The notes: a model not told the origin generated them from the letters alone. A DNA stretch of 33,627 nt from Candidatus Pacearchaeota archaeon (GCA_016784085.1 JADHVH010000002.1:1-33627), one strand, 5' to 3'; numbered from the stretch's first letter, positions 4,677 to 23,282 are shown. Program-made: numbers and translations.

Positions 4677-5878
4677 TCAGCAAAGAAAGTGTAAACTATT
4701 CTTTAAGAAACCTTAAGAATAGAAAGTTTAGAAGCTTCCTCACTATTTTTTCTATTTTTGCAGGAATAGTAACTATATTTATTTTCATAAGTTTTGGGGC
4801 TGGATTATACAAATATGTTGATGAAGTTGCAGGAAGTTCTTCTGCAGATAAAGTTCTAGTAATGTCTAAAGGGGGATTTGGAGGATTAGATACTTCTTTT
4901 GAACTTACAGAAGATAATTTAAAAGATTTTGCAGGCACTCCAGGAATATATGTTTCTACAGGAGTTTATTTTAGATCTGTAGAGATAGGTTTTAATGATC
5001 AAACTATTTATTCTTTTTTAATTGGGTTTGACCCTCAAAAACCTTTGATTATGGAAATGTCTAATATTGGAATTTCTAAAGGAAGAATGTTAAGTTCAGG
5101 AGATGGAAGAGATATTTTATTAGGATATAATTATCAAATTAAAGATAGAATATTTTCTAAGCCAATTGATTTAAACAATAACATTGAAATTAATGGTGAA
5201 GAATTTAGAGTAATAGGATTTTTAGAAGAAGTAGGAAATCCTCAAGATGATTCTCAAGTGTATATTGCAGACGATGCTATGAAAGAGTTTTACGGAGATG
5301 AAAATTTACCCTATAATTGGATTATTGCTTCAGCAGATACCAGTAATATGGATCAGGTAGTTAAAAATGCTGAAAAAAGTCTTAGAAAATCTAGAGGATT
5401 AGAAGAAGGAAAAGAAGATTTTTTTGTACAATCTTTTACAGAATTAATGGAAGGATATAGTACTGCATTAAATGTTATTGTAGCATTTATTATTTTAATT
5501 GCATTAATTTCTATTTTAGTTTCATCTATTAATACTGCTAACACCATGATAACTTCTGTTTTAGAAAGAGTAAAAGAAATTGGAATTATAAAATCAATTG
5601 GTGGAAAAAATTCAGAAGTATTTAAGATATTTTTATTTGAATCTTCTTTCCTTGGTTTTGTTGCAGGAGTATTTGGAGTGGTTGTAGGGTGGGCTGTTAG
5701 TGCACTTGGAGGAGAAATTTTAAATCAATTAGGATATGGTTTTTTATCCCCCTATTTCCCATTAGAACTTTTTATAGGATGTATTTTATTTGCAGTTTTA
5801 ACAGGAGCTGTTTCAGGAGTAATACCTGCAATAAATGCAACAAAGATAAATCCTGTAGAAGCTTTAAGATATGAATAG
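4673..5878 (+). CDS. ABC transporter permease, FtsX/MacB family (second paralog)
   Basis: Same architecture (ITSVLERVKEIGIIKSIGG, PVEALR). Its ATG overlaps the upstream TGA as ATGA at 4673-4676. Confidence 0.85.
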   Translation: MISKESVNYSLRNLKNRKFRSFLTIFSIFAGIVTIFIFISFGAGLYKYVDEVAGSSSADKVLVMSKGGFGGLDTSFELTEDNLKDFAGTPGIYVSTGVYFRSVEIGFNDQTIYSFLIGFDPQKPLIMEMSNIGISKGRMLSSGDGRDILLGYNYQIKDRIFSKPIDLNNNIEINGEEFRVIGFLEEVGNPQDDSQVYIADDAMKEFYGDENLPYNWIIASADTSNMDQVVKNAEKSLRKSRGLEEGKEDFFVQSFTELMEGYSTALNVIVAFIILIALISILVSSINTANTMITSVLERVKEIGIIKSIGGKNSEVFKIFLFESSFLGFVAGVFGVVVGWAVSALGGEILNQLGYGFLSPYFPLELFIGCILFAVLTGAVSGVIPAINATKINPVEALRYE

Positions 5879-7686: not shown

Positions 7687-8793
7687 TTACTTTGAACCAA
7701 AATTAGTATTTAAAGTTAAATAGGCTCCAAAACCTTTAGTTTCATTTCCGCCTAATTCAAGGCCACCTTTAATATCTCCAACTTTTAAAGGAGTGTAAAA
7801 CATAAATGCTGGAACAGAACCTTCTTCATCTGTATAAACACCTGCGCCAAAACGCCCAAACTTAGTGTTTCTTCCTAATCTTACTTCAGATTGAGTAATT
7901 CCTTCTTCTTTATTTCCTGCAAAATCAACCATCAAAGTATTATTTCCTTTTGTTTCAGCAGGAGTAAAATGTGGGAAAAAGAAAGGTGGGAAAATAAATA
8001 ATTCATTAGTTGGATTTGAAAATCCTTTTGAATAAAAACCTTGAGAAACATCTCCTGCAGCTGTTCTTGTTTTAACAAAAAAGTTTTCATCTTGAGGATT
8101 ATAAACTGCTATTCCTAATGTTCCAAAATTTTCCATTCCGTGGGTATTTCCAGTAAAAGAAAGACTATTGTGTCTAGGCCCTTTACTACCTCCAACACTA
8201 GCATAAAATTTATCAAAAAAATCAGCACCAACATTAGCAAAAAAATCAGAATTTTCTAAATTAGCTTTTGAAATATTATTTGGATATAAACTTGCCACCA
8301 TACCATATAAACTTCCTTTTTTAGCATTACCATACATCCATTGTAAGGGATTCATTCCTTTTTGAGCCATTACACCCCAATCTAATCCAACATCTGTTTG
8401 TCCTGCTTGAAGCCCTTTATAAAATTCAACAGCTGCTAAATCATCTTTAGTCCAATCTCCAACACCGTATAAAGAAAGACTAGAATTTCCAATATTAAAT
8501 GGTTGAGGAATATTAACCTTTAAAGCATCTGCAGGATCTGGATCACTTCCACTTGAAGAATTTAAATCATAATCAATCCCAATATCTCCTATTTTCACTT
8601 TTGTTCTTTGTTTAGATAAAAAAGGAGCACTTCCAGTTATAATATTGCTTTCAGAATTTATAGAAACAGGCATTTCAATTTTTTTTGGTTCAGGAATTCC
8701 TAGATCTAGAGTTTTAGCCTCTAAACTAGTTGTATCTGGATCTGCAGATAAAGCTCTTACAAGTTCTGCAGCAATCATTGATGAATTTCCCAT
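7687..8793 (-). CDS. beta-strand-rich Gly/Asn/Phe-rich protein of unknown function (porin-like composition, no signal peptide)
   Basis: 368-aa ORF with alternating aromatic/polar segments and the terminal stretch KGFGAYLTLNTNFGSK. The N-terminus MGNSSMIAAELVRALSADPD is not hydrophobic. Confidence 0.5.
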   Translation of the reverse strand: MGNSSMIAAELVRALSADPDTTSLEAKTLDLGIPEPKKIEMPVSINSESNIITGSAPFLSKQRTKVKIGDIGIDYDLNSSSGSDPDPADALKVNIPQPFNIGNSSLSLYGVGDWTKDDLAAVEFYKGLQAGQTDVGLDWGVMAQKGMNPLQWMYGNAKKGSLYGMVASLYPNNISKANLENSDFFANVGADFFDKFYASVGGSKGPRHNSLSFTGNTHGMENFGTLGIAVYNPQDENFFVKTRTAAGDVSQGFYSKGFSNPTNELFIFPPFFFPHFTPAETKGNNTLMVDFAGNKEEGITQSEVRLGRNTKFGRFGAGVYTDEEGSVPAFMFYTPLKVGDIKGGLELGGNETKGFGAYLTLNTNFGSK

Positions 8794-10482: not shown

Positions 10483-11832
10483 ATGAAAAATGTAAAATTC
10501 AAGTCAAAACCAGGTATTAGTGAGCAACTTGTAAGACAGATTTCTAAAGATAAAAAAGAACCTAAATTTATGTTAGATTTAAGATTAAGAGGATTAAAGC
10601 TATTCAATGAAATAAAAATGCCTAACTTCGGTCCAGATATTAGTGATTTAGATTTGGAAAAAATATCCTATTATGTTAGGCCAGATGCTAAAAAAGCAAA
10701 AAAATGGAAAGATGTTCCTAAAGAAATTAAAGATACTTTTGATAAGCTAGGAATTCCAGAATCTGAAAAAAAAGCATTGGCAGGTGTAGGTGCTCAATAT
10801 GAATCTGAAATAATTTATCATAATTTAAAATCAGATCTAGCTGAAAAAGGAGTTATTTTCTTAGATATGGATGAGGCTATTAACTTATATCCTGAGTTAA
10901 TTCAAAAATATTTTATGACTTCTTGTGTACCAATTGGTTTACATAAATTTTCTGCAATGCATGCAGCTGTTTGGTCTGGAGGAACTTTTATTTATGTTCC
11001 TAAAGGAGTTCAAGTAGAGTTACCTTTACAAGCTTATTTTAGAATGAATGAGAAAAATTCAGGTCAGTTTGAACATACTTTAATAATTGCAGATGAAGGT
11101 TCAGAAGTTCATTATATTGAAGGTTGTTCTGCACCTCTTTATTCAGAAGATTCTCTACATGCAGGATGTGTAGAAATTCATGTTTTAAAAAATGCAAGAG
11201 TAAGATATTCTTCTATAGAAAATTGGAGTAAAAATGTCTATAATTTAAATACCAAAAGAGCAGTAGTTCAAGAAAATGGAATTATTGAATGGGTAAATGG
11301 AAACCTAGGGGGTAAAAAAACAATGCTCTATCCATGTAGTTTACTTGTTGGAAAAAATTCAAAATCAGATTATATTGGAATTGCCTATGCAGGTAAGGCC
11401 CAATATCAGGACACAGGATGCAAAGTATATCATTTAGCTAAAAATACTACTTCAAATATTCTTAGTAAAGGAATTAGTTCTGAAAATGGAGTTAGTTCTT
11501 ACAGGGGTTTAGTTAAAATAAAAAAAGGATGTGAAAATTCAAAATCATTTGTAAAATGTGATGGCCTAATGTTGGATAATAAAAGTAAGGCTTTAACCTT
11601 TCCTGCAATGGAAGTTGAAGAAAATAATGTTGATGTAGCTCATGAAGCTGCAGTTGGAAAAATCGGAGAAGATCAACTATTTTATTTAATGTCAAGAGGA
11701 TTATCAGAAGAAGAGGCAACCAAAATAATAGTTTCAGGTTTTATAGAACCATTAATAAAAGAATTACCCTTAGAATATGCTGTAGAATTAAATAGACTAA
11801 TAGACCTTGAAATTGAAAAGTCGGTTATTTAA
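10483..11832 (+). CDS. sufB: Fe-S cluster assembly scaffold SufB
   Basis: Contains FEHTLIIADEGSEVHYIEGCSAP and the C-terminal beta-helix region DVAHEAAVGKIGEDQLFYLMSRGLSEEEA. Confidence 0.93.
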   Translation: MKNVKFKSKPGISEQLVRQISKDKKEPKFMLDLRLRGLKLFNEIKMPNFGPDISDLDLEKISYYVRPDAKKAKKWKDVPKEIKDTFDKLGIPESEKKALAGVGAQYESEIIYHNLKSDLAEKGVIFLDMDEAINLYPELIQKYFMTSCVPIGLHKFSAMHAAVWSGGTFIYVPKGVQVELPLQAYFRMNEKNSGQFEHTLIIADEGSEVHYIEGCSAPLYSEDSLHAGCVEIHVLKNARVRYSSIENWSKNVYNLNTKRAVVQENGIIEWVNGNLGGKKTMLYPCSLLVGKNSKSDYIGIAYAGKAQYQDTGCKVYHLAKNTTSNILSKGISSENGVSSYRGLVKIKKGCENSKSFVKCDGLMLDNKSKALTFPAMEVEENNVDVAHEAAVGKIGEDQLFYLMSRGLSEEEATKIIVSGFIEPLIKELPLEYAVELNRLIDLEIEKSVI

Positions 11833-11833
11833 T

Positions 11834-13051
11834 ATGGAAATTGATAATAAAAAAGCTCACGAATTAAAAAAAGATTTTCCTATTTTTAAAAATAATAAAG
11901 GATTAATATATTTAGACAATGCTGCAACTTCTCAAAGGCCCCAAGTTGTTATAGATTCAATAAAAGATTTTTCAGAAAAAAATAATGCTAATATCCAAAG
12001 AGGACTTTACACTTTAAGTGAAAAAGCAATGAAAAAATATAATGAAGCTAGAAAAATAATAACTAAATTTATCAATGCTAATGAAAAAGAAATTATTTTC
12101 ACTAAAAATACTACTGAAGCCTTGAATTTATTGTCCTATACTATTTCAGAGATCATTTCTAAGGAAAAAGATGAAATTCTATTAACAGAAATGGAGCATC
12201 ATTCTAATTTAGTTCCTTGGCAACAGTTAGCTAAAAGAAATAACATGAAATTAAAATTTATTAAAATTAAAGATGATTTCACATTAGATTTAGAAGATGC
12301 TAAAAATAAAATTACAGATAAAACAGCTTTAGTTTCAATTGTTCATGCTTCCAATGTTCTTGGAACAATTAATCCTATTAAAGAAATAATAAGTTTGGCA
12401 AAAGAAAAAAAAGCTTTAACAATAATTGATGCTGCTCAAAGTGCCTCCCATATTAAAATAGATGTGAAAGATTTAGATTGTGATTTTCTAGCATTTTCAG
12501 GACATAAACTTTTAGGGCCAATAGGAATAGGGGTTTTATATGGAAAACAAGAATTATTAGAAAAACTTCCACCCTTCTTATTTGGTGGAGGCATGATAAA
12601 AAAAGTTACTTATGAAGATTCAGAGTTTGCAGATTTACCAGAAAAATTTGAAGCAGGAACTCAAAATATTTCAGAAACAATTGCTCTTGCAGAAGCAATA
12701 AAATATGTTCAAGAAATAGGTTTAGAAAATATTTCAAAATGGGAATCTGAATTATTTGAATATGCTTTAAAAAAACTAGAAGAACTAGGAGATATTGAAA
12801 TCTACAGTCCTAAAAAAAATAATATTTCTATTCTATCTTTTAATCCAAAAGGAATTCATGGGCATGATGTTGCATCTTTATTAAATGAAGATAATATTGC
12901 AATAAGAGCAGGACATAATTGTGCTATGCCCTTATTAGAAAAATTAAATATTCCCAGTGTTTCTAGAGTTAGTTTAGCCTTTTACAATACTTTTGAAGAT
13001 ATTGACTCATTAGCACAATCCTTAAGTAAAATAAAGACTAAGTTTAATTAA
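11834..13051 (+). CDS. sufS: cysteine desulfurase SufS (group II)
   Basis: Contains YLDNAATSQRP, the PLP lysine SGHKLLGP and the catalytic loop RAGHNCAMP. The ATG at 11834 (MEIDNKK) avoids the overlap with sufB implied by the track start at 11807. Confidence 0.9.
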   Translation: MEIDNKKAHELKKDFPIFKNNKGLIYLDNAATSQRPQVVIDSIKDFSEKNNANIQRGLYTLSEKAMKKYNEARKIITKFINANEKEIIFTKNTTEALNLLSYTISEIISKEKDEILLTEMEHHSNLVPWQQLAKRNNMKLKFIKIKDDFTLDLEDAKNKITDKTALVSIVHASNVLGTINPIKEIISLAKEKKALTIIDAAQSASHIKIDVKDLDCDFLAFSGHKLLGPIGIGVLYGKQELLEKLPPFLFGGGMIKKVTYEDSEFADLPEKFEAGTQNISETIALAEAIKYVQEIGLENISKWESELFEYALKKLEELGDIEIYSPKKNNISILSFNPKGIHGHDVASLLNEDNIAIRAGHNCAMPLLEKLNIPSVSRVSLAFYNTFEDIDSLAQSLSKIKTKFN

Positions 13052-13052
13052 C

Positions 13053-13763
13053 ATGACTGAAGCATTATATCTAAAAGATAGTTATCTTAAAGAATGGAAT
13101 GCAATTGTTCAAGAAGTTGATAATGATACTTTTATAGTTCTAGATAAAACAGCTTTTTATCCAAATGGAGGTGGACAACCCTATGATGAGGGTTTAATAA
13201 CAAAAGAAGATGGAACTATTTTCAAAGTAAGATATTGCGGAAAATTTAATGGATATATTAGTCATGAAGTTAACGAACCTGGATTAAAACCAGGAGATGA
13301 AGTTTTTTGTAGATTAGATTGGAATAGGAGATATAGGCTTATGAAAATGCACACTGCTATCCATATTTTAAGTGAAGTTATTCATAGGGATACAAATGCT
13401 ATGATTACTGGTGGCCAATTAGGAGAAGAAAAATCTAGAATGGATTTTGCTTTAGAAGAATATGATCGAGATAAAATAATGTCTTATATAGATTTTGCAA
13501 ATAAAAAAATACAAGCAAATTTACCAATAACTATTGAATTTTTACCCAGAGAAGAAGCGGAAAAAATACCTATTATGACTAAGTTAGCAAAAGGCCTTTC
13601 AAAAGAAATAAAAGAAATTAGAATTGTAAATATTGGAGATTTTGATATTCAAGCAGATGGTGGAACTCATGTTAAAAATACAAATGAAATTGGAACAATA
13701 AAACTTCTAAAAATAGATAATAGGGGAAGAAATAATAGGAGGATTTATTTTACATTAGAATGA
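13053..13763 (+). CDS. alaX: AlaX-M-like alanyl-tRNA editing protein
   Basis: Contains LDKTAFYPNGGGQPYDEG, the HxxxH zinc motif HTAIHILSEV and DGGTHVKNTNEIG. The 236-aa length matches AlaX-M. Confidence 0.85.
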   Translation: MTEALYLKDSYLKEWNAIVQEVDNDTFIVLDKTAFYPNGGGQPYDEGLITKEDGTIFKVRYCGKFNGYISHEVNEPGLKPGDEVFCRLDWNRRYRLMKMHTAIHILSEVIHRDTNAMITGGQLGEEKSRMDFALEEYDRDKIMSYIDFANKKIQANLPITIEFLPREEAEKIPIMTKLAKGLSKEIKEIRIVNIGDFDIQADGGTHVKNTNEIGTIKLLKIDNRGRNNRRIYFTLE

Positions 13764-14131
13764 CAAGTGAAGCAGGAGATATTTACAGGGAATATATTTT
13801 AGATTTATACAAAAATCCTCATAATTTTGGAATTCTTGAAAATGCAACCCATAAACATGAAGAATTTAATCAAATGTGTGGAGATAAAATCAAAGTTTTC
13901 TTAGATATAAAAGAAGGTAAAGTTAAAGATATTAAATTTGATGGAGAAGGATGTGCAATAAGTATGGCCTCAGCATCTTTAATAACAGATAAAGTAAAAA
14001 ATATGCCTGCAGAACAAATAAAAGATCTTGGAAGCCAATTTGTATTAGATTTAATGAGGATTCCTATTGGGACTTCAAGAATGAAATGCGCTTTACTACC
14101 TCTTGAAGCTATTAAAAGAGCTTTAAATTAA
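13760..14131 (+). CDS. sufU: SufU/IscU-type Fe-S scaffold or sulfur acceptor
   Basis: YKNPHNFG plus three conserved Cys (MCGDKI, GEGCAIS, RMKCALLP). ATGA overlap with alaX. Confidence 0.85.
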   Translation: MTSEAGDIYREYILDLYKNPHNFGILENATHKHEEFNQMCGDKIKVFLDIKEGKVKDIKFDGEGCAISMASASLITDKVKNMPAEQIKDLGSQFVLDLMRIPIGTSRMKCALLPLEAIKRALN

Positions 14132-14133
14132 AA

Positions 14134-14862
14134 ATGAAATTTCTAGAAATAAAAAATTTACATGTAGAAGTTGAAGGTAAAAAAATCCTAAATGGAATTA
14201 ACCTTGAATTAGAAAAAGGAAAAGTAGTTGCTCTAATGGGCCCTAATGGTTCTGGAAAATCAACTCTGGCAAATGTTCTAATGGGTCATCCAAAATATAA
14301 AATCACAAAAGGAAAAATATTCTTTTTAGGAAAAGATCTTTCAAAGCTAAGTCCAGATAAAAGAGCTAATTTAGGGTTATTTTTATCTTTTCAAAATCCT
14401 CAGGAAATAGATGGGGTCAAAGTTTTTAATTTTCTTAAACAATCATATAATTCCACCAATAAAAAACAATTAATGACTTTCCAATTTCAAGATCTATTAG
14501 ATGAAAAAGCAGAACTTCTTAAGATAGATCAGAATTTTCTAGAAAGATATGTGAACAAAGGATTTTCAGGAGGAGAAAAAAAGAAGCTAGAAATATTACA
14601 GCTTCTAACACTAAATCCAAAAATGGCCATATTAGATGAAACAGATTCTGGCCTAGACATTGATGCTTTAAAAACAGTTTCAAAAGGAATTAAGAAGTTC
14701 TTAAACAAAGACAAATCAGTATTGATTATAACTCACCATCAAAAGATTTTAAACTATATTAATCCAGATCAAGTAGCAGTAATAAAGAAGGGCCAAATAG
14801 TAAAATTAGGCAAAAAAAGCTTAATAAAAAAAATTGAAAAAAAAGGTTATAGTTCTTTGTGA
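14134..14862 (+). CDS. sufC: Fe-S assembly ATPase SufC
   Basis: Walker A GPNGSGKST, HPKYKITKG, signature FSGGEKKK, Walker B ILDETDSGLD and H-loop ITHH. Confidence 0.93.
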   Translation: MKFLEIKNLHVEVEGKKILNGINLELEKGKVVALMGPNGSGKSTLANVLMGHPKYKITKGKIFFLGKDLSKLSPDKRANLGLFLSFQNPQEIDGVKVFNFLKQSYNSTNKKQLMTFQFQDLLDEKAELLKIDQNFLERYVNKGFSGGEKKKLEILQLLTLNPKMAILDETDSGLDIDALKTVSKGIKKFLNKDKSVLIITHHQKILNYINPDQVAVIKKGQIVKLGKKSLIKKIEKKGYSSL

Positions 14863-14866
14863 AGTT

Positions 14867-15100
14867 TTATCTTCCCCCACAACCGCCACCACAACTTGAT
14901 CCTGTTGTTGCTCCACAATTAGATGATCCACAGTTATTTCCTGCAGTACATCCTCCTTGGGCTGCGTTAGGACAGCTTCCTGATTCACAAGACCCAGTAT
15001 AAGTATTATCCGTAGCATCTACACTTGTTATTGCTGCTGTTGCTAAACCTACTAGAACTAACAAGCCTACCATTATTGCTACTGTTACTAAAGTTTTCAT
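14867..15100 (-). CDS. exported Cys/Gly-rich peptide (77 aa, 8 Cys in the last 40 residues)
   Basis: Signal/TM segment MKTLVTVAIMVGLLVLVGLATAA, then GSCESGSCPNAAQGGCTAGNNCGSSNCGATTGSSCGGGCGGR. A GGAGGT Shine-Dalgarno-like box lies at 15110-15115 (plus-strand ACCTCC), 9 nt upstream of the ATG. Confidence 0.55.
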   Translation of the reverse strand: MKTLVTVAIMVGLLVLVGLATAAITSVDATDNTYTGSCESGSCPNAAQGGCTAGNNCGSSNCGATTGSSCGGGCGGR

Positions 15101-15118
15101 ATTTGTTTTTACCTCCTT

Positions 15119-15811
15119 TTAATTTACTATAAATAAACCATTCATACTACTATGGCCATGACCACATGGAACATTACAATAAAAGCTAAACGTACCTTGT
15201 TTATTAGCTATAAATTCTATAGTTATTTGATCTCCTTGATTAATAAATTCATTTATTTCAAAATCATATAAGGCTATTCCATGGGCTCCTTCAACACTTT
15301 CAATATTTAGTATAACTTGATCTCCCAAATTAACTTCTATTTTATTTGGAGAAAAATCCCAATTATTTGCAACTATATCAAATTCTTTTATTTCCCCTGT
15401 TTCTTCTACATTTTGAACAAGATTTCTTCCACTTGATTGCCAGGTATTCATTCCCCCATCTAGATCATAAATATTAGTATAACCTAATTCTAATAATTGG
15501 TGTGCAGATATGGTAGACATTCTTCCACTTCTACAATAAATAGCAATAGGTGTTGATTTATCTTCTGGAAGTTGATCTAAATAAGAATCCATATTTTCCC
15601 AATTATACGCGTTTAAATCTGTTCCCTCAATCTCTCCAATATAAGGAGTATGGGCATTAATAACATATACTTCTTCAGAAGAAATTAATTGTTCAAATTG
15701 ATCTGAACTTACAGAATTAATTTTATTTGGGTTTAAAAATACAAAAAAGAAAATAAGGATTACTACAAGTAATCCCCCTATTAAAAAAAATAAGTTATTT
15801 TGTTTTTTCAT
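15119..15811 (-). CDS. membrane-anchored rhodanese domain fused to a CuA-type cupredoxin domain
   Basis: Rhodanese active-site loop YCRSGRMS. The C-terminal H-x34-C-x3-C-x3-H-x2-M (HGIAL...FYCNVPCGHGHSSM) has exactly the CuA ligand spacing of cytochrome oxidase subunit II and N2O reductase. The ATG at 15811 (MKKQNNLFFLIGG) follows the upstream stop by 1 nt. Confidence 0.8.
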   Translation of the reverse strand: MKKQNNLFFLIGGLLVVILIFFFVFLNPNKINSVSSDQFEQLISSEEVYVINAHTPYIGEIEGTDLNAYNWENMDSYLDQLPEDKSTPIAIYCRSGRMSTISAHQLLELGYTNIYDLDGGMNTWQSSGRNLVQNVEETGEIKEFDIVANNWDFSPNKIEVNLGDQVILNIESVEGAHGIALYDFEINEFINQGDQITIEFIANKQGTFSFYCNVPCGHGHSSMNGLFIVN

Positions 15812-15812
15812 C

Positions 15813-16235
15813 TTATAAACTAGGATATTTTTCCTCAATGATTCTTTCGATGGCCTCTAATTCACCTGTTTTTTCAGCTATAGCTTCTGCAAAATATTCT
15901 TTAAGATAAGGATTTCCATGACCTTCTAAAATTTCTCCAATACATTCTCCACAAGGATGAACTCCATTAACTAAATCTTCTAGACAACTACATTCAGCAC
16001 CTTCTCCATGTCCAGGTGATTTTTCAATACAATATGTGCATGGTTTTTCAAGACAACATCTATACATACCATTAGATAACATAGTTCCCTGGATAGATGT
16101 TTTTAATCCAATAAATTCTTCTCTTTGTTCAGTTACAGATGCACTACCTGGAGCTGTGAATATTGCTATTAAAATAGCTACTAAGAAAACAGCTGTGATT
16201 AGATAACCTCCTTTTTGTTTCATATTTTTCATCAT
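15813..16235 (-). CDS. exported Cys/His-rich protein (9 Cys), function unknown
   Basis: N-terminal TM/signal segment, then RCCLEKPCTYCIEKSPGHGEGAECSCLEDLVNGVHPCGECIGEILEGHG. ATGA overlap with the upstream gene. Confidence 0.55.
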   Translation of the reverse strand: MMKNMKQKGGYLITAVFLVAILIAIFTAPGSASVTEQREEFIGLKTSIQGTMLSNGMYRCCLEKPCTYCIEKSPGHGEGAECSCLEDLVNGVHPCGECIGEILEGHGNPYLKEYFAEAIAEKTGELEAIERIIEEKYPSL

Positions 16236-16687
16236 ATTTTCATAAATGTGGATGTTTTTCCATCTTTAATTGCATAAATTATCCATTGACCACTTTTAAT
16301 TCCAGGCATACCAGGACTACCTGCAGGCATATTTGGAAGAGAAATACCATCAATATCTGGTTGTTCTTCTAATAATTTATTTATAGCTTCAATTGGAATG
16401 TGTCCTTCAATAAAATAATCTCCCACAATAGCTGTATGACAACTTTCCATTGATCTTGGAATATTATATTCTTCTTTTATAGCCTGCATATCCTCAGTCA
16501 TTATTGTTTCTGTTAAAAATCCTTTATTTTGAATATAGGGGATCCATTTTGCACAACAACCACAATTAGCAGATTTATATACAGTCATAGGAATTTTATC
16601 ACTTACAACATTACCAGTAGAAACCACATAGGTTGTTGAAACAGCAATCAAAATTACAATTAAAATAAAAATATTTTTTCCATTCAT
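16232..16687 (-). CDS. copG: DUF411 / CopG-family copper-resistance metal-binding protein
   Basis: Contains YKSANCGCCAKW (the CxCC motif), ESCHTAIV, IEGHIP and NMPAGSPGMPG. Signal anchor at the N-terminus. Confidence 0.8.
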   Translation of the reverse strand: MNGKNIFILIVILIAVSTTYVVSTGNVVSDKIPMTVYKSANCGCCAKWIPYIQNKGFLTETIMTEDMQAIKEEYNIPRSMESCHTAIVGDYFIEGHIPIEAINKLLEEQPDIDGISLPNMPAGSPGMPGIKSGQWIIYAIKDGKTSTFMKI

Positions 16688-16861
16688 TTAACAACCACCA
16701 ACCATTCCACCATAACCACTTGCAGCTTGTTGTGCAGCAGCTTGACTAGCAGATAAAGTACTTTGAGCTGTTGCTGCAGATCCTTGAAAGAATACTACAT
16801 ATAAAACTAATATTCCTAAAATTCCAATAAGGCTCCACAATGCAATTTGTCTATTATCCAT
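16688..16861 (-). CDS. 57-aa single-pass membrane peptide ending in GGMVGGC
   Basis: The ATG at 16861 has a GGAGG box at 16872-16876. Sequence: MDNRQIALWSLIGILGILVLYVVFFQGSAATAQSTLSASQAAAQQAASGYGGMVGGC. The longer track start (16942) would overlap the upstream gene. Confidence 0.5.
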   Translation of the reverse strand: MDNRQIALWSLIGILGILVLYVVFFQGSAATAQSTLSASQAAAQQAASGYGGMVGGC

Positions 16862-16883
16862 ATTTATTTTTCCTCCGTTATTA

Positions 16884-17555
16884 TTAGCAGCCCCCAACCA
16901 TTCCTCCGCTTGTTTGACCTTTTTCAATATCTCTATAGTCATTAGATGTTAGGCTAATATAATCTGTAGATATTCCTTTACTAGCCATAATATCTGCCTT
17001 ACCCTGCATTATTCCTGGGAAAAATAATACTTTCCATTTTCCAACTTCTTCTAAGATTTCTTCATCAGTATATTCCTCTCCATGGTTTAAGATTAAATAT
17101 TTTGCAAGCCCCCTCATTGCATATGAATGAGCACAACCACATGCTGCTTGGCCATTTTCAAATATAATAGATCTAGCTCCACAACAATATTCACAAGAAA
17201 TTCCTCCGTGTGAAACATATAAGATATTAATATATCTCTCTAAGTCAGCACCTTCTAATGTTTCTGTCCTATCTATACTAGAAAGAAAGGAAATTGTTTG
17301 ATCTGCTAATTGAGGATCATTAGCACTCACAAAATCATAAGCAACACCTAATTCATCACCATATATTTCTGGAACGCCTGTTGGAATAATACTTGAAGCA
17401 GAAACTCCACTCTGTGAACTAGAATCTAATATAACATTAGAATTTGTTCCAAAATTAACATTAAATAATAATACTAAGATTAATACAGACAAAATAGCTA
17501 TTTGGCTATAAAATGTCAAATCGCTTTTTTTCACCTTGATTTTTTTTGTTTTCAT
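16884..17555 (-). CDS. exported Cys-rich protein (223 aa) ending in GGMVGGC
   Basis: N-terminal anchor, then the SCEYCCGARSIIFENGQAACGCAHSYAMRGL cluster and the C-terminal tail TSGGMVGGC. It is the first gene after the operator/TATA at 17573-17606. Confidence 0.6.
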   Translation of the reverse strand: MKTKKIKVKKSDLTFYSQIAILSVLILVLLFNVNFGTNSNVILDSSSQSGVSASSIIPTGVPEIYGDELGVAYDFVSANDPQLADQTISFLSSIDRTETLEGADLERYINILYVSHGGISCEYCCGARSIIFENGQAACGCAHSYAMRGLAKYLILNHGEEYTDEEILEEVGKWKVLFFPGIMQGKADIMASKGISTDYISLTSNDYRDIEKGQTSGGMVGGC

Positions 17556-17592
17556 GAATTTTTTAAGAAATAGTTTATTATAACTACTTTGG

Positions 17593-17606
17593 TGAAACTA
17601 GTTTCA
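17593..17606. promoter_or_regulatory. perfect 14-bp palindrome TGAAACTAGTTTCA, candidate operator 9 bp upstream of the TATA box (17573-17583)
   Basis: It is part of the 20-bp box CTTTGGTGAAACTAGTTTCA (17587-17606), which recurs with one mismatch at 20921-20940. Confidence 0.6.
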
Positions 17607-17660: not shown

Positions 17661-19616
17661 TTAAATTCTTTTTCTTCTTAAGAGATTAGCATTGGCAATA
17701 ACTGTTATACTTGATAGGGCCATAGCAACTTCTGCAATCACCGGGTGTAAAACGCCTCCAACTGCAAGGGGAATTGCAACCACATTATAAGCAAATGCCC
17801 AGAATAAATTCTGTTTGATTTTTCCAAATGTTGCTTTACTCAATTCTATTGCTTGACAAACCCCTATTAAAGATCCTTTAGTAAGAACAATGTCTCCAGC
17901 CTCAATTGCAATATCTGTTCCAGTACCCATAGCAATTCCCACATTAGATTGTTTTAAAGCAGGGGCATCGTTTATACCATCTCCAACAAAAGCAACATAC
18001 GAATTACTTTTAGATTGAAGCCTCATTACAGCTTCTGATTTATCTCCAGGTAAAACATTTGCAATAACTTTCTTTATTCCAACTTCTTTAGCAATTGCTT
18101 GAGCAGTTTTTTCATTATCTCCTGTAATCATTACTGTAAAATAACCTTTCCTATGTAAATATTTCAATGCTGCAATAGAGTCTTCCTTAACAGAGTCTGC
18201 TACTGCAATTAAACCTAAAACCTTTTTATCTTTTTTAGAAGTCAAAATCATTACTGTTTTTCCTTGGCTTTCTAAGTGATCAATTTTCTTCACAAAATTC
18301 TTTAAACTAATTTTATTCTCTTTCATGAGTCTTTTATTTCCAATGATATATTTCTTACCCTGTATTGTTCCTTCAAGACCTCTTCCTAAAAGAGTTTTGA
18401 AATTTTTAACTAAACTATATTTTTTTAATTTTGAAAAATCAACTATTGCTTTTGAAAGAGGATGACTAGATAACTTTTCAAGACTTCCAGCAATTTTTAG
18501 AAATTTTTCTTTTTTAATACTTTTAGACAATTCAATATTGGTTACCTCTGGCTTACCTTTAGTTATAGTTCCTGTTTTATCAAAAGCTATAATTTTAATT
18601 TCTTTCATAGTTTGAATTGCTTCACCCTTTCTAATCAATATACCTCTTTTTGCACCCATTCCAGAACCAACAGTTAAGGCAATAGGTGTTGCTAAGCCCA
18701 AAGCACAAGGACAAGAAATTACTAAGACTGCTATAGATGCGCCAAAAGCATTATTCACATCTCCAAAAATCATCCATCCTATGAATGTTAGAATAGATAG
18801 GATTAATACTGAAGGAACAAATATATTTGTTATTTTATCTGCAAATTTTTGTATTGGAACCTTACTTCCCTGTGCATCTTCAACCAAATCAATTATATGT
18901 GCTAAAAAAGTATCTGAACCTATTTTTGTTGCTTTAACATAAAGAATTCCTTCTTGATTTATTGTAGCCCCTATAACATTATTTCCTTTTACCTTATCTA
19001 TAGGTAAGCTTTCTCCAGTAATCATAGATTCATCAACAGAACTTTGACCTTTAGTAACAATTCCATCTGTTGGAATTTTTTCACCAGGTTTAATAATCAT
19101 AATATCTCCAATTTTAACTTCTGAAATTGGGATTTCTACTTCCTTGCCATTTCTTATAACTGTAGCATTTTTCGCACCTAATTCTAATAGTTTTTTTATT
19201 TCTTGGCCAGCTCTCCCTCTTGCTTTAGATTCAATATATTTTCCAGTGATAAATATTGCCATTATCATTGCTGAAACTCCAGAATAATTTTCAAAACCAA
19301 AAATTAAACTAGCTATTCCTGTAAGATATGCTACAACTGTTCCAAGGGCAATTAAAGAATCCATATTAAAATAGAAGCTCAAGAAACCTCTAAATCCAGA
19401 TTTTAAAGTAGAAAATCCTACAATGAATATCACTGGAAAGGCAAAAATTAAAGTTAAAATTATAGTAATTTTTTCTTCAAATAACATTACTCCAAAAATC
19501 ATTGGAAGATACATTAATAAAATAAGGGGAATTGAAATTATCCAGCTCCAAAATAGTTTTCTCTTCCAACTATTAATTTCTTTTTCTTCTAAACTTTCTT
19601 CATTTTTGTGATCCAT
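17661..19616 (-). CDS. copA: P1B-1 type Cu(I)-exporting ATPase CopA (no fused N-terminal metal-binding domain)
   Basis: Contains [11 protein letters not shown] (CPC), [19 protein letters not shown], and the AFAYNVV (YN) and MALSSITV (MxxSS) copper-selectivity motifs. Confidence 0.95.
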
Positions 19617-19619
19617 TTT

Positions 19620-19832
19620 TTATTCAATTGAAGCTACTTTATATCCTGCTCTAGAAACAGCTTTCTTCAAATCATCTTGAGAAATATTTTCCTCTGCTTG
19701 AACAATTGCCTTATTTGTCATCATACTAACTCCTACAGATTCAACACCTTCAAGTTTATTCAAACTCTTCTCTATATTTAAAGCGCAAGAGGCACAATGC
19801 ATTCCTTCAATTTTTATTTTTATTTTTTTCAT
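19620..19832 (-). CDS. copZ: copper chaperone CopZ (HMA domain)
   Basis: MKKIKIKIEGMHCASCALNIEKSL carries the MxCxxC motif. Its ATG at 19832-19830 overlaps the upstream TGA (ATGA). Confidence 0.85.
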   Translation of the reverse strand: MKKIKIKIEGMHCASCALNIEKSLNKLEGVESVGVSMMTNKAIVQAEENISQDDLKKAVSRAGYKVASIE

Positions 19833-20203
19833 TTTACAATTAATGTTCCAACTCCCATTCCCATTGAACATGAAAACCTATAGGTTCCTTTTTTATTAGG
19901 AGTAAATTCAACATAATCATCAACATCTTTAAAATTTTTATATACTCCAAAATCTTTAATCACTAAAGATCTATAACATCCTCTTACTGTTTCATCTAAG
20001 TAGATTCTAACAGGTTGATTAACATTCACTTTTATAGTGTTTGGATTATAATTATAATTCTTCATACCAATAGTAATTTCTTGAACCCCTCCTGAACCTA
20101 AATTTCCAATAACATTCCCCATAATGGGAGAATCTTTTATTAAAAATAATCCAAATCCAACCACCAATAAAAACAGCACAAATAAAGCAATTTTATTTCC
20201 CAT
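19829..20203 (-). CDS. membrane-anchored cupredoxin-like domain protein (Cupredoxin_1 type often found next to copA)
   Basis: N-terminal anchor MGNKIALFVLFLLVVGFGLFLI, then YNPNTIKVNVNQPVRIYLDETVRGC ... GTYRFSCSMGMGVGTLIV. Confidence 0.7.
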   Translation of the reverse strand: MGNKIALFVLFLLVVGFGLFLIKDSPIMGNVIGNLGSGGVQEITIGMKNYNYNPNTIKVNVNQPVRIYLDETVRGCYRSLVIKDFGVYKNFKDVDDYVEFTPNKKGTYRFSCSMGMGVGTLIVK

Positions 20204-20204
20204 T

Positions 20205-20888
20205 TTACCCAAATAAAATACTCCTTGGCCCAAAGACCATAAACATAATTGTTATTAAGGTTAAAATTAAGCTTGCTAGTATAATTGGAAAATAATCTTC
20301 TTTAATTTCTCTTTCCCTTTCATACATTTCAAGATATACCATATAGTTAAGTGCAGCCATTATTGCTAAGGAAACTAAAAAGACTACTATTCCTGCTGCC
20401 CTAAGATGGTCATTTATCATCATAACTGCAGTCATAGCCCCCATTAATCCACCCATGAATCCAGACATCATTCCTTCCATTATTCCCATTATTCCGCAGC
20501 ATCTTCCGTTTTGAACTCCTAAAATAATCCCCACACTCATTCCAAATATACTTCCCCAAAACATCCCATTTGTAGCTGCAACATAATATCCTGCTAGAAA
20601 TCCTGAAATCATCCCAATAGTCATTCCAACCATCATTCCAGACATGCATGCAAATGTTTGATAAGCTTTAACCTGTCTTAGAGAAGGTAGAACAATAGCA
20701 TAACTTAAAATTGCAAAGAATATAAAAAACCCATATTTTGGAATAAAATTTTCAAAGTCTTTTAATCCTAAAAAATATAATACTATAAAAACAATAAATG
20801 AGGTAACTAAGGAATAGGTTACTGTTTTTATTATTTCACCTTCAACTCTAGAACCAGAGAGTTCTTTCACAAATTTTTTTGCAGACAT
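20205..20888 (-). CDS. polytopic Met/Gly-rich membrane protein, function unknown
   Basis: TM helices are loaded with Met: ACMSGMMVGMTIGMISGF and RCCGIMGIMEGMMSGFMGGLMGAMTAVMM. It is the first gene after the operator/TATA at 20911-20940. Confidence 0.6.
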   Translation of the reverse strand: MSAKKFVKELSGSRVEGEIIKTVTYSLVTSFIVFIVLYFLGLKDFENFIPKYGFFIFFAILSYAIVLPSLRQVKAYQTFACMSGMMVGMTIGMISGFLAGYYVAATNGMFWGSIFGMSVGIILGVQNGRCCGIMGIMEGMMSGFMGGLMGAMTAVMMINDHLRAAGIVVFLVSLAIMAALNYMVYLEMYEREREIKEDYFPIILASLILTLITIMFMVFGPRSILFG

Positions 20889-20926: not shown

Positions 20927-20940
20927 TGTAACTAGTTTCA
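20927..20940. promoter_or_regulatory. near-palindrome TGTAACTAGTTTCA, second copy of the candidate operator, 9 bp upstream of the TATATAA box (20911-20917)
   Basis: CTTTGGTGTAACTAGTTTCA (20921-20940) matches 17587-17606 at 19 of 20 positions. It overlaps the stop codon of the TVP38/DedA gene. Confidence 0.6.
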
Positions 20941-21576
20941 ATGTTTTTTATTAAACATATTATCTAATAAATGGCCCAAAATAATTAAAAATAAACCTAC
21001 AACTCCAATAATTAAAAAGAATGCAAGTTGGTATCTAAAATCTGCATATCCAAAATAAGAGGCCATAAATGCTTTTGGAATTATTCCTAAAAGACTAGCA
21101 TAAAAATATGGTTTAAATTTAACATTACTTAAGATTCCTAAAGCATAGCTTATTAAATCAACAGGAAAAATTATTCTTAATAAGAAGATACTCCAAAATT
21201 GATTTTCTTTAGGGATTTTATTTTCAAGTTTGTAAATATCTTTTAAAGGAATTATTTTTTTAACTAATGCAACTCCCCATTTTCTAGAGATAAAAAATAC
21301 TAATACAGATCCCAATGTCCAGGAGAAAACATTAATAATACTTGCATAAAAAGGACCCATCATTTGAGAAACAACTGGGATTAGAGGCATTGAACTAATT
21401 GGGGCAAAGACCATTGCTATTTGTCCAATAAGAATATATGCTAAAATTCCCCAATAACCATTTCCCAAGAATTTTTTAAAAAAATCTAAATTAGATTGAA
21501 CAATATAGGATATAGTTAAAAATATAACAATTATTATTAAAAGTTCAAGAAAATATTTTGTTTTTTCTGATTTCAT
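20938..21576 (-). CDS. TVP38/TMEM64 (DedA/SNARE-associated, VTT-domain) membrane protein
   Basis: Contains FAPISSMPLIPVVSQMMGPFYASIINVFSWTLGSVLVFFISRKWG, and the topology is typical of the family. Confidence 0.75.
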   Translation of the reverse strand: MKSEKTKYFLELLIIIVIFLTISYIVQSNLDFFKKFLGNGYWGILAYILIGQIAMVFAPISSMPLIPVVSQMMGPFYASIINVFSWTLGSVLVFFISRKWGVALVKKIIPLKDIYKLENKIPKENQFWSIFLLRIIFPVDLISYALGILSNVKFKPYFYASLLGIIPKAFMASYFGYADFRYQLAFFLIIGVVGLFLIILGHLLDNMFNKKH

Positions 21577-22058
21577 CTTCTTAAAACAACAATATTATTC
21601 ATTCCACGTCTTTTACGTTCTACAATTTGTTTAGCTTCAAGTTTATCAAGAAGTCGAGTAGTTTTAACCTTACCAATTTCAAGCTTTTCCATTAAAGTTT
21701 TTTGAAATATAGCTCCATTTTCTTTTTCAAGAAAGTTAACAACTCTTTTTTCATCTCTATCAAGTTTAGATTTATCAATTTTTTTTCTTTTTGCTTTAAT
21801 AGTTTTAGTTTTAACCACAATTTTTTCTTTAGGTTTTGTAAAGATCAAAACAATTGCAATAAGAACTAATAATCCAACAATAGCTAAAGCAAGATATGTT
21901 TGTTGATTTACTGTTTGACTCATTGGACAACTTAACGCATGTTCACCTGTACAACTTAATGAAACAACTTGTCTAAGTGCTTTTTGAAATAATAAAACAA
22001 TTGCGATTAATACTGCTGAAATTCCAAGCATGATATATCCTACATATTTATTTTCCAT
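21573..22058 (-). CDS. membrane-tethered winged-helix transcriptional regulator
   Basis: Two TM helices flank the loop SLSCTGEHALSCPMSQ. A basic linker follows, then a C-terminal wHTH (RVVNFLEKENGAIFQKTLMEKLEIGKVKTTRLLDKLEAKQIVERKRRG). Both neighbours overlap it. Confidence 0.65.
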   Translation of the reverse strand: MENKYVGYIMLGISAVLIAIVLLFQKALRQVVSLSCTGEHALSCPMSQTVNQQTYLALAIVGLLVLIAIVLIFTKPKEKIVVKTKTIKAKRKKIDKSKLDRDEKRVVNFLEKENGAIFQKTLMEKLEIGKVKTTRLLDKLEAKQIVERKRRGMNNIVVLRR

Positions 22059-22569
22059 TTTCTAAATTAAGATCTATTTTACATACAGTTGGCCTTGTTA
22101 ATAAAACTATTGCTGTAATTAAAAAAGCTGCAGAAATAAATTGCAATTCCAGACCATAAAGAGGTAGGCTACTTAGAGTTGCAGATATCCCAAATATCCC
22201 TATAAAAGCAGGAAAAAAACCTGCAAAGCAACCAGGACAAGCCCCCCCTAAAATTCCCCCAAAAACTCCTAAAATACCCAAGCCTTCTTCCCCTTTAGAA
22301 TTTATAGATTTCCAATCTTGGAATTTTATTGCAGTAAGGTTAATAGTTAATGCAATTAAAAACGGAATTAATAAAAAATTAAAAAATACAAAGGGAATCA
22401 AAAACCAAGCCTTAAATGAAGTAAATAAAGTTGGTAAAGTTGTCTTAAAATCATTTAAGAAAAAATTCAATAAAAGATATGCTAAAAAAATAATAATAAA
22501 AGAAAAAATATAGGGCTTTGTCAAAATAGATTTTTTTATAGCAAACTTCCTATTTTGATTTAGCCACAT
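22048..22569 (-). CDS. polytopic membrane protein with intramembrane CPGC motif
   Basis: About four TM helices. Contains GGILGGACPGCFAGFFPAFIGIFG. It starts 15 nt after the DsbA-like gene. Confidence 0.55.
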   Translation of the reverse strand: MWLNQNRKFAIKKSILTKPYIFSFIIIFLAYLLLNFFLNDFKTTLPTLFTSFKAWFLIPFVFFNFLLIPFLIALTINLTAIKFQDWKSINSKGEEGLGILGVFGGILGGACPGCFAGFFPAFIGIFGISATLSSLPLYGLELQFISAAFLITAIVLLTRPTVCKIDLNLENGK

Positions 22570-22583
22570 TTTAAAATAAAAAA

Positions 22584-23282
22584 TTAAACACCTGAAGTGA
22601 ATAAAGCATCATGCATACCCCAATAATCTCCTTGTTCTCCAGCACATCTAGCAGCTTCTGCAGCTTTTTGAGCTTTAGCATGGAAATTTAATGGAAAATC
22701 TTTGAACACCATTTTTACTTTTCCAGTATCAACATATTCAGATAATAGTTGTGGATAAGTTTGAGCAAAGTGTCTTCCACAATATGGGCATTCATAGTCT
22801 GAGAATTCAACAATTGTAACTGGAGCATTTGAATCTCCTTTTACAGGAGAATCTCCAATTTCAACATCAATTCTAGCCTCATTAGTTGCAGTTCCAGATA
22901 ATTCTTCTTCAATAATTTGTTGAAATACTGAGAAAGGTTGAGCACCAGATAAGATTCTTCCATTAATAAAAAAACCAGGTGTTCCTGAAATCCCTATACT
23001 TGAACCATATTGAAGATCTGCGGAAACATTTGAACTATATTTTCCAGAATTAACACATTCTTCAAAATCTTTTGTGTCTAATCCTAAATCATCAGCATAT
23101 TGAACATATTTTGTAACTCCTTCTAATTGAGTACCGCTATTATCATTTACAACTTGTCCACTTGGCCTTATAGCTATTACAAGAACAATTACAAACAGAG
23201 CTGCAAATAAAAAAGTCCCTGCCTTCCAAAGAGTATCTTTTTTGATACTTATTGTTTTTTCTTCTTTTTTATGTTCAGTCAT
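22584..23282 (-). CDS. membrane-anchored DsbA-family thiol:disulfide oxidoreductase (domain order appears circularly permuted)
   Basis: APVTIVEFSDYECPYCGRHF (CPYC) ... CAGEQGDYWGMHDALF lies at the C-terminus. The normally C-terminal LGLDTKDFEECVNSGKY ... GISGTPGFFINGRILSGAQP lies near the N-terminus. A GGAGG box sits upstream at 23291-23295. Confidence 0.8.
   Translation of the reverse strand: MTEHKKEEKTISIKKDTLWKAGTFLFAALFVIVLVIAIRPSGQVVNDNSGTQLEGVTKYVQYADDLGLDTKDFEECVNSGKYSSNVSADLQYGSSIGISGTPGFFINGRILSGAQPFSVFQQIIEEELSGTATNEARIDVEIGDSPVKGDSNAPVTIVEFSDYECPYCGRHFAQTYPQLLSEYVDTGKVKMVFKDFPLNFHAKAQKAAEAARCAGEQGDYWGMHDALFTSGV

Follow-up and report, generated by a model that had tools for sequence, protein, structure and literature searches.

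The DNA analyzed here is a 33,627-nucleotide (nt) stretch from Candidatus Pacearchaeota archaeon (GCA_016784085.1 JADHVH010000002.1:1-33627), and this whole stretch is referred to below as the window. The subject of this work is a group of six co-directional minus-strand open reading frames (ORFs), g1 to g6, that occupies positions 14867 to 17555. An original prediction, which was made from the sequence alone, described them as a tightly packed operon of exported Cys-rich proteins behind a TATA box and a palindromic operator, and proposed that they formed a coherent, undescribed envelope copper or thiol module. All six ORFs were found at the predicted places (Table 1). From g1 to g6, consecutive ORFs were separated by 22 and 0 nt, overlapped by 4 nt (ATGA) at the g3-g4 junction, and were then separated by 1 and 18 nt. 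The TATA box and the palindrome were also present in front of g1. Each of the six proteins contained one N-terminal hydrophobic segment, in line with the signal or anchor segments that had been claimed for them, and all six products are predicted to be exported or membrane anchored. The Cys motifs were as described, except that g4 contained eight Cys residues rather than nine. In the case of g2, the length varied among gene callers (57, 69, or 84 amino acids [aa]); the 57-aa start was favored because homologues were 51 to 60 aa long and a GGAGG sequence was located 8 nt upstream. For g5, a longer TTG start at 15838 was not chosen by the gene callers. Rfam and tRNA scans of the window yielded no RNA gene.

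Table 1. Genes and sequence elements in the window (positions counted from its first nucleotide)
Feature	Coordinates	Strand	Description
SUF cluster	10483-14862	+	sufBD, sufS, AlaX-like tRNA_SAD editing-domain gene, nifU/iscU, sufC
g6	14867-15100	-	77 aa; predicted exported Cys/Gly-rich peptide, 7 Cys, ending ...CGGGCGGR-COOH
g5	15119-15811	-	230 aa from ATG; anchored rhodanese fused to cupredoxin with full CuA ligand set
g4	15813-16235	-	140 aa; predicted exported orphan; CC-x4-C-x2-C ... H ... C-x-C ... H-P-C-x2-C ... H
g3	16232-16687	-	151 aa; DUF411/CopG homologue
g2	16688-16861	-	57-aa tail peptide; membrane anchor, S/A/Q-rich linker, GYGGMVGGC-COOH
g1	16884-17555	-	223 aa; N-in membrane anchor, disordered linker, ~165-aa mostly helical Cys-rich domain, tail SGGMVGGC-COOH
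TATA-box-like element	17573-17583	-	TTATAATAAAC; ~18-25 nt from g1 ATG
Operator O1	17593-17606	-	TGAAACTAGTTTCA; perfect 14-nt palindrome, 37 nt upstream of g1 ATG
CopA	17661-19616	-	P1B-1 Cu(I)-exporting ATPase; NCBIfam TIGR01511, 574.6 bits versus cutoff of 397
CopZ-like copper chaperone	19620-19832	-	Pfam HMA; MHCASC
Anchored Cupredoxin_1 protein	19829-20212	-	Pfam, 42.7 bits versus cutoff of 27; C...CSMGMG
Met-rich polytopic membrane protein	20205-20888	-	227 aa, 22 Met, CC pair; first gene of cop operon
Operator O2	20927-20940	-	tgaaactagttaca; 1 mismatch to O1, 38 nt upstream of Met-rich membrane protein ATG
Candidate regulator	21573-22058	-	Pfam DUF7343, 45.1 bits versus cutoff of 27.6
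CxxC membrane protein	22048-22569		173 aa, polytopic; no Pfam family
DsbA-like protein	22584-23282		thioredoxin fold
Largest ORF of the window	29231-32506	+	1091 aa

The G+C content of the window was about 30%, and the window also encoded diphthamide synthase, TrmB-type regulators, and PC4. The closest relatives of its proteins were proteins of metagenome-assembled genomes labeled Nanoarchaeota, Pacearchaeota, or Woesearchaeota, which places its source among the DPANN archaea. The contig was independently assembled from several ENA and Logan samples, and the identical gene order was found in a close relative (NCBI GCA_900089805.1, contig FLOH01000026.1; locus L087 below). All counts out of 80 refer to 80 species-representative loci from GTDB that were retrieved with a g1 profile, and neighboring genes were counted when they were located at most 8 kb from g1.

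Pfam and NCBIfam scans placed g3 in DUF411 and identified a rhodanese and a cupredoxin domain in g5, as had been anticipated, and they assigned no family to g1, g2, g4, or g6. The N-terminus of g1 was highly basic (+6), which argues for the N-in, C-out orientation, and its Cys-rich domain contained the motif C121-x2-C124-C125 ... C139-G-C141-A-H143. The g1 family comprised 1965 clusters at 90% identity, all of which were annotated as "hypothetical" and none of which had a Pfam domain; a profile search against 1.84 billion representatives yielded 283 clusters at 50% identity. The five core Cys residues, H143, M219, G221, and C223 were invariant in the g1 alignment, as were many other residues. 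The AlphaFold2 (AF2) model of g1 was confident, with a predicted local distance difference test (pLDDT) score of 85 and values mostly above 90 in the domain, and a Foldseek search with this model against the PDB gave no match below an expectation value (E) of 1 (best, 1.4). No match with an E value below 0.1 was returned by PDB sequence-profile searches with either g1 or g4. When 30 g1 homologues and 32 g4 homologues were scanned singly against Pfam at E values up to 5, only scattered chance matches were observed, and none of them were to CCG, PCYCGC, or DUF2946. An HdrB-type CCG domain (PF02754) had been considered for g1 because g1 contains C-x2-C-C-G, and this candidate was rejected, as 0 of the 30 homologues matched it. 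The idea of kinship between g1 and g4 was also dropped; the hhalign probability was 1.4%, indicating that they are unrelated.

The sequence MVGGC-COOH was the common C-terminus of g1 and g2. The codons for the two tails differed, which indicates conservation at the level of the peptide and not of the DNA. In 80 g1 homologues, the terminal Cys and the Gly at position -2 were present in all 80, and the Met at position -4 was present in 79. One to three small ORFs (44 to 160 aa) with an MVG(G/D)C end adjoined g1 in 71 of the 75 loci that had room downstream, and all 99 of the tail peptides examined ended in M-V-G-(G/D)-C. Most of these peptides resembled g2 in having an anchor, an S/A/G/Q linker, and the tail, and a second class carried a conserved Met/His-rich block (W-T-x-N-E-x-M-N-Y-E-M-H-G-T-I-P). 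The tail was shared by g1 and the peptides across DPANN lineages, and it was kept on g1 in bacteria of the Candidate Phyla Radiation (CPR) as well. Even distant g1 relatives, some of which were fused to other domains, retained an LPxMVGGC C-terminus; the fusions themselves (FKBP_C and unannotated membrane domains only) were uninformative. Co-variation between the g1 tail and the peptide tail was seen in locus L020 alone (MVGDC in both), which was too little to use. Because the invariant tail Met and Cys are classic Cu(I) donors, we counted them in favor of a function in copper handling. A search of the searchable literature returned nothing relevant on the MVGGC motif or on DPANN copper systems.

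Several related proteins were observed near g1. A second, divergent g1 paralogue (250 to 400 aa, ending in LPGMVGGC) with its own tail peptide accompanied the first system at a distance of a few kb in two loci (L028, 12780-13776; L078, 13807-15258). Neighboring membrane proteins of 142 to 145 aa ended in ...KGGSC or ...KGGCCK (L088, 6695-7123; L094, 4434-4871). Locus L090 encoded an anchor-linker peptide ending in FVGGGCGR and a small Cys-rich protein ending in SGGGCCG (3693-3839; 7929-8129).

One short C-terminal motif on several unrelated neighboring proteins is typical of sorting signals, and the LP-x-M-VGGC end of distant members is reminiscent of LPxTG. Hence, MVGGC (ancestrally LPxMVGGC) could be a signal for sorting, processing, or modification (lipidation, attachment, or cleavage) or could belong to the precursor of a copper peptide resembling ribosomally synthesized and post-translationally modified peptides, and g1 could be the recognizing enzyme or receptor, with its invariant Cys and His residues serving in catalysis. 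We consider this explanation very improbable. Neither a hydrophobic segment nor a basic tail came after the motif, which constituted the last five residues. It was always present on g1 itself, and the peptides had N-terminal membrane anchors rather than leader peptides. In addition, no sortase, archaeosortase, protease, radical-SAM, or MbnB/C-like gene was conserved in the loci. Assignment to the LPXTG, PGF-CTERM, or GlyGly-CTERM class was rejected specifically, since the motif had no accompanying hydrophobic helix and basic residues and the gene tables contained no sortase, archaeosortase, or rhombosortase.

The palindrome in front of g1 (O1) abutted both CCAAAG, which resembles a B recognition element (BRE), and the TATA box. 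A putative operator abutting the BRE is the layout of a leaderless archaeal promoter, and the TATA-to-ATG spacing implies that the mRNA is leaderless or has a very short leader. The second copy (O2) overlapped the stop codon of a VTT/DedA gene and was followed by CCAAAG-N3-TTATATA. Both operators shared CCAAAG-N3-TTATA(A/T)A, with the ATG about 22 nt farther on. When we searched for TGAAACTAGTTTCA with at most one mismatch, 2 copies were found in the window versus 0.02 expected by chance. In the 80 loci, 61 operator sites were found in 926 kb, and 47 of these were directly 5' of g1, usually separated from the start codon by 38 nt; the remaining sites mostly preceded genes for cupredoxins, HMA fusions, Met-rich membrane proteins, or thioredoxin-like proteins or the divergent regulator gene. 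The consensus for the 47 g1 promoters was TGAAACTAGTTTCA-CCAAAGCG-gTTATAA, about 22 nt, and ATG. The near-unchanged state of this 14-bp operator across DPANN species (47/80 loci) implies strong selection. Some Woesearchaeota-type promoters contained an extra GTGTTTCA half-site downstream of the TATA box, which hints at repression.

Four genes upstream of g1, on the same strand, encoded CopA, CopZ, a Cupredoxin_1 protein, and a Met-rich membrane protein. The transmembrane motifs of CopA were present in the translation as SCPCALG (CPC), AFAYN (YN), and MALSS, and the reading of CPC, YN, and MxxSS motifs follows the established P1B classification. The Met-rich membrane protein matched no Pfam or other known family. 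It adjoined the cupredoxin in all 14 loci that had it, and the cupredoxin was present in 15 of the 80 loci. The operator preceded the gene for the Met-rich membrane protein in the window, L087, and L068, and the layout with two operators, one for g1 and one for the cop operon, was also present in L087 and L088. The palindrome is a conserved putative operator common to g1-g6 and the cop operon, and its presence in front of both counted for co-regulation with copper export.

The candidate for the protein that acts at this site is the DUF7343 protein. It consists of a first transmembrane (TM) segment, a loop with the invariant residues C36 and C44(-P-M), a second TM segment, and a DUF7343/MarR-like winged helix-turn-helix (wHTH) domain. 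In an alignment of 60 homologues, two invariant Cys residues (C-x6-9-C-[P/S/T]-M) were located between two hydrophobic segments that were followed by the wHTH domain. The Cys loop is predicted to face outward and the wHTH domain to be cytoplasmic, so that the protein looks like a transmembrane one-component sensor that reads the outside. In many loci the regulator gene was directly upstream of g1, often divergent from it across the operator. No paper in the searchable literature mentioned DUF7343, and the operator was not found described under that name (its sequence was not itself used as a search term). In the window, the regulator gene was preceded by the genes for the DsbA-like protein and the CxxC membrane protein, in that order. 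The latter could be a DsbB/VKOR-type partner of the DsbA-like protein, and the pair recurred near g1 in about 14 to 18 loci.

The gene neighborhoods separated a core from accessory genes. The DUF7343 regulator was near g1 in 60 of the 80 loci and DUF411 in 59, followed by CopA (34/80), any BLAST match to the rhodanese and/or cupredoxin part of g5 (17/80), CopZ-like HMA proteins (16/80), Cupredoxin_1 (15/80), the Met-rich membrane protein (14/80), and g4 (6/80). In the 27 loci with at least 7 kb of sequence on both sides of g1, DUF7343 was found in 24, DUF411 in 22, CopA in 13, and one or more copper genes in 19. The order g1-peptide-DUF411-g4-g5 recurred in L087, L088, L089, L091, and L093, and a g6 homologue followed in L087 and L091. 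As judged from these neighborhoods, the core is the regulator, g1, one or more tail peptides, and CopG, and g4, g5, and g6 are accessories that were kept in a subclade. In four loci labeled as CPR bacteria (L050, L051, L071, and L072), g1 was beside DUF411 and CopA without the operator and the regulator, which provides independent support for a link to copper. Overall, at least 278 species-level genomes contained the module, which was represented by about 2000 protein clusters. The proteins did not fall into well-characterized families with unrelated functions, and the gene order recurred in several other lineages. A coherent and undescribed envelope copper/thiol module behind a palindromic operator is therefore supported, but the conserved unit is g1, tail peptide, CopG, and regulator rather than the six genes, and the MVGGC tail and the second operator had been overlooked in the original prediction.

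The loci also contained recurrent redox and thiol genes, namely, rhodanese-DUF411 fusions, NapH/NosR-like Fer4_5-cupredoxin fusions, DsbD_TM, and DsbA-like genes. The NapH/NosR-like fusions were polytopic proteins of about 500 aa in which CxxxCP and Fer4_5 motifs were joined to a C-terminal type-1-like cupredoxin (L018, 3034-4539; L092, 4482-5999). The L092 copy occupied the g4 position, directly after DUF411, which suggests that such proteins supply electrons across the membrane to the same module. An ArsP_1-type permease gene followed the module directly in L089 (3477-4487) and after one small ORF in L091 (6978-8015) and L095. In L095, a gene for a DsbD_TM (CcdA-like) reductant transporter was located just upstream of DUF411-g4 (coordinates for the ArsP_1/DsbD_TM pair, 4633-5772 and 1960-2949). 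Genes for ArsR-type HTH and DUF302 proteins were frequent in these loci.

The identification of g3 as a DUF411/CopG protein with a CGCC motif was borne out. It matched DUF411 (PF04214) with 86.5 bits versus a cutoff of 27 (E = 9.5e-25) and PDB entry 6WIS (CopG) with E = 5.5e-25, and the CxCC (NCGCC), SCHT, and MPAGSPGM motifs were aligned. The CxCC motif corresponded to C42-G-C44-C45, and a single N-terminal hydrophobic segment (residues 1 to 28) predicts an extracytoplasmic location. In terms of sequence and predicted topology, g3 is a bona fide exported CopG/DUF411 homologue. CopG has a role in anaerobic copper resistance and carries a Cu4 cluster (PMC7558416), for which the CxCC motif and a conserved Met pair provide the ligands (PMC7558416; PMC8456105).

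The g4 family comprised 577 clusters, all "hypothetical" and without a Pfam domain. Eight Cys and two His residues were invariant in the alignment and a third His was near-invariant. The AF2 model of g4 (pLDDT 74) had no fold match in the PDB with Foldseek (best E, 4.5). Where g4 was present, it was directly 3' of DUF411 in every case.

The rhodanese-CuA cupredoxin fusion that had been claimed for g5 was confirmed by Pfam matches above cutoff for both domains and by the presence of every CuA ligand. The rhodanese domain (PF00581, 40.8 bits versus a cutoff of 22.2) contained the active-site loop C93-R-S-G-R-M-S with the catalytic Cys. The Cupredoxin_1 match was 36 bits versus a cutoff of 27, and the CuA ligands were arranged as H ... 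C212-x3-C216-x3-H-x2-M (GAHG ... CNVPCGHGHSSM). This domain aligned end to end with the CuA domain of Thermus ba3 (6PTY, E = 6e-10), and the best NCBIfam match of g5 was the NosZ CuA region. The fusion was rare, with about 14 protein clusters from DPANN-type contigs. In other loci, the CRSGxMS rhodanese subtype was free-standing, fused to DUF411, or fused to a CxxC membrane domain, and CuA-type cupredoxins were also found separate from rhodanese. The rhodanese-DUF411 fusions, which carried CRSGxMS and CGCC (L034, 8859-9632; L044, 5722-6807; L047, 8795-9538; L082, 4904-5680), act as a Rosetta stone connecting CopG with this rhodanese subtype. A membrane domain without a Pfam family, characterized by a signal-proximal HCPLC and by MSMGMW, was either fused to a CRSGRMS rhodanese or free-standing (L008, 5669-6520; L054, 9857-10765; L090, 6641-7228).

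A homologue of g6 with the same Cys spacing followed g5 in L091, where it was found by synteny, and both proteins ended in C-G-x-G-C-G-G-R. A pattern scan of the 80 loci for g6-like Cys/Gly-rich small ORFs found none. Comparison with L087 gave 11 synonymous and 3 non-synonymous codon differences for g6 (16 and 5 for g4; 20 and 10 for g3), and all Cys residues of g6 were kept, which indicates that this low-complexity ORF is a real gene under purifying selection. The SUF cluster converged on g6, and the AlaX-like gene between sufS and nifU was kept in L087, L088, and L091.

The ends of g1, g2, and g6 are also the basis of the main rival explanation. In SoxY, a C-terminal GGCGG contains the Cys to which the sulfur substrate is bound (PMC6067878). 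By analogy, the Gly-flanked C-terminal Cys tails (MVGGC and the GCGGR of g6) could form a SoxY-like swinging arm that is loaded with persulfide or polysulfide by the exported rhodanese, and the system could serve extracytoplasmic sulfur handling or the precipitation of copper sulfide. The tails do end in GGC-COOH, in GCGGR-COOH in the case of g6, and in FVGGGCGR-COOH in L090, and the CRSGxMS rhodanese recurs in the loci, whether free or fused to DUF411, the CxxC membrane domain, or CuA. However, BLAST matches to g5 were found in only 17 of the 80 loci, and only some of these covered the rhodanese part, whereas the tails were near-universal. The SUF cluster for Fe-S assembly, with its cysteine desulfurase, is the convergent neighbor in this lineage, but SUF is cytoplasmic and is encoded on the opposite strand. 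Furthermore, the invariant Met at position -4 is not needed for a sulfur carrier, the operator is common to copper export genes and not sulfur genes, and the six proteins and their neighbors included no SoxY/SoxZ Pfam match and no Sox enzyme. On balance, we consider a sulfur relay unlikely.

Another explanation is that the module serves cuproprotein assembly instead of detoxification, such that g1, the tails, and CopG pass copper exported by CopA to exported cupredoxins, namely, the g5 CuA domain and the cupredoxin encoded upstream of copZ. There is a precedent in Rhodobacter capsulatus, in which maturation of the multicopper oxidase CutO needs CopZ-CopA and CutF, a small exported Cys-motif protein that has an essential conserved C-terminus and is encoded together with the CopG homologue CutG (PMC8456105). 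Cupredoxin genes were frequent in the loci, but many loci with g1, a tail peptide, and DUF411 had no cupredoxin within 8 kb. CutF-like proteins are defined by a signal peptide, a central CxxxC/CxxC, and a C-terminal PP motif (PMC8456105). The g1 protein and the tails are not of the CutF/DUF2946 type, as they had no C-terminus with CxxxC plus PP and no Pfam match. In particular, g2 was rejected as a CutF-like/DUF2946 protein since it has a single C-terminal Cys, no PP motif, and no Pfam match. We view this explanation as quite doubtful; its mechanism overlaps that of a copper-protective module, as both involve a Cu(I) relay.

We prefer the reading in which g1-g6 form one half of a regulon that responds to copper and deals with Cu(I) on the external face of the membrane of a DPANN archaeon, with capture, relay, and buffering coupled to CopA. 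We assign it a probability of roughly one-half. Specifically, the membrane-bound DUF7343 wHTH protein would sense Cu(I) or thiol oxidation via its two outward Cys residues and would control both promoters through the palindrome, and CopZ and CopA would expel Cu(I). The MVGGC tails, on flexible and tethered low-complexity linkers, would serve as swinging arms in which the Met thioether and the terminal Cys thiolate coordinate Cu(I). The Cys clusters that receive Cu(I) from these arms would be those of g1 (CxxCC/CxC/H) and CopG (CxCC plus Met) and, in this lineage, also those of g4 (8 Cys/3 His) and g6 (7 Cys), and they would buffer it as Cu-thiolate clusters. The CuA domain of g5 might donate or withdraw electrons as copper is converted between Cu(I) and Cu(II) at CopG, and the rhodanese Cys might keep thiols serviceable or provide sulfane sulfur. 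It is by inference that we assign metal binding to the tails, g1, g4, and g6, a sensing function to DUF7343, and a redox function to g5.

Several observations weigh against a dedicated copper function. Fewer than half of the loci had CopA at a distance of 8 kb or less. The pairing of the candidate regulator with the operator rests on adjacency only, and g5 showed relaxed constraint relative to its closest orthologue in L087 (28 synonymous and 33 non-synonymous differences). The occurrence of ArsR, the ArsP-type permease, and DUF302 in these islands makes another soft metal or a thiol/sulfur function possible. In addition, the sulfur carrier SoxY is likewise characterized by a C-terminal Cys flanked by Gly.

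Copper homeostasis in the envelope that is centered on CopA, CopZ, and CopG is a known kind of system. For the families of g1, g4, and g6, the tail peptides, and the membrane-anchored regulator, no description was found in Pfam, NCBIfam, the PDB, or the searchable literature. We tentatively propose, as a possibility that falls short of our confidence in the copper reading as a whole, that the MVGGC-COOH tail represents a new class of membrane-tethered swinging-arm carrier peptides, which together with the novel-fold g1 would form an outer-face relay for Cu(I) or sulfane sulfur that is switched by a transmembrane one-component wHTH protein at a DPANN-wide palindrome. DPANN archaea and CPR bacteria have genomes of about 1 Mb and almost no characterized envelope biochemistry. 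If the proposal is true, ultra-small archaea (and, with respect to g1, some CPR bacteria) would have a compact envelope thiol system that replaces periplasmic glutathione, multicopper oxidases, and Cus-type pumps. Tails that function as Cu(I) or sulfur arms would represent a new carrier principle in metal and sulfur trafficking and would provide a handle on surface copper protection in single-membrane, glutathione-poor cells. The locus also exposes several orphan families together (the g1 domain, g4, g6, two or three classes of tail peptides, and the Met-rich membrane protein), as well as a candidate transcription factor that spans the membrane and has a defined DNA site.

Among known systems, the cop/cut operons with CopG or CutG (Pseudomonas aeruginosa, 6WIS; R. 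capsulatus cutFOG) share with this locus a g3 homologue with CxCC and Met motifs, the link to CopA-CopZ export, and small exported Cys-motif proteins with a conserved C-terminus, as in CutF (PMC8456105). The set-up is probably one of catching extracellular copper and passing it on. Unlike those operons, the locus described here belongs to a single-membrane archaeon and has no multicopper oxidase; the partners (g1, the MVGGC peptides, g4, and g6) are unrelated to CutF/DUF2946, and a candidate membrane-anchored wHTH protein is accompanied by a palindrome that adjoins an archaeal TATA box. SoxY is similar in that an exported protein has a Gly-flanked Cys at its C-terminus on a flexible arm and a rhodanese is encoded nearby. 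The resemblance is in principle only, because there is no SoxY fold or Pfam match and no SoxZ, SoxAX, SoxB, or SoxCD. In contrast to SoxY, the tail here is M-V-G-G-C-COOH with an invariant Met, the putative carriers are membrane-tethered mini-proteins and a 223-aa Cys-cluster protein, and the context is copper rather than sulfur oxidation. In the case of the COX2 and NosZ CuA domains, the C-terminal domain of g5 aligned over its full length with Thermus ba3 and had the ligands H, C, C, H, and M, but no oxidase subunit I or NosZ catalytic domain accompanies it, and it is instead fused to a rhodanese with a one-helix anchor. Finally, the archaeal copper regulators CopR and CopT are TrmB-like wHTH proteins that sense metal in the cytoplasm. 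The DUF7343 candidate is likewise a winged-helix regulator beside copA and copZ, and its presumed target is a palindrome close to the TATA box, but it differs from CopR and CopT in being membrane embedded, with two TM segments and an invariant Cys pair in a loop that is predicted to face outward.

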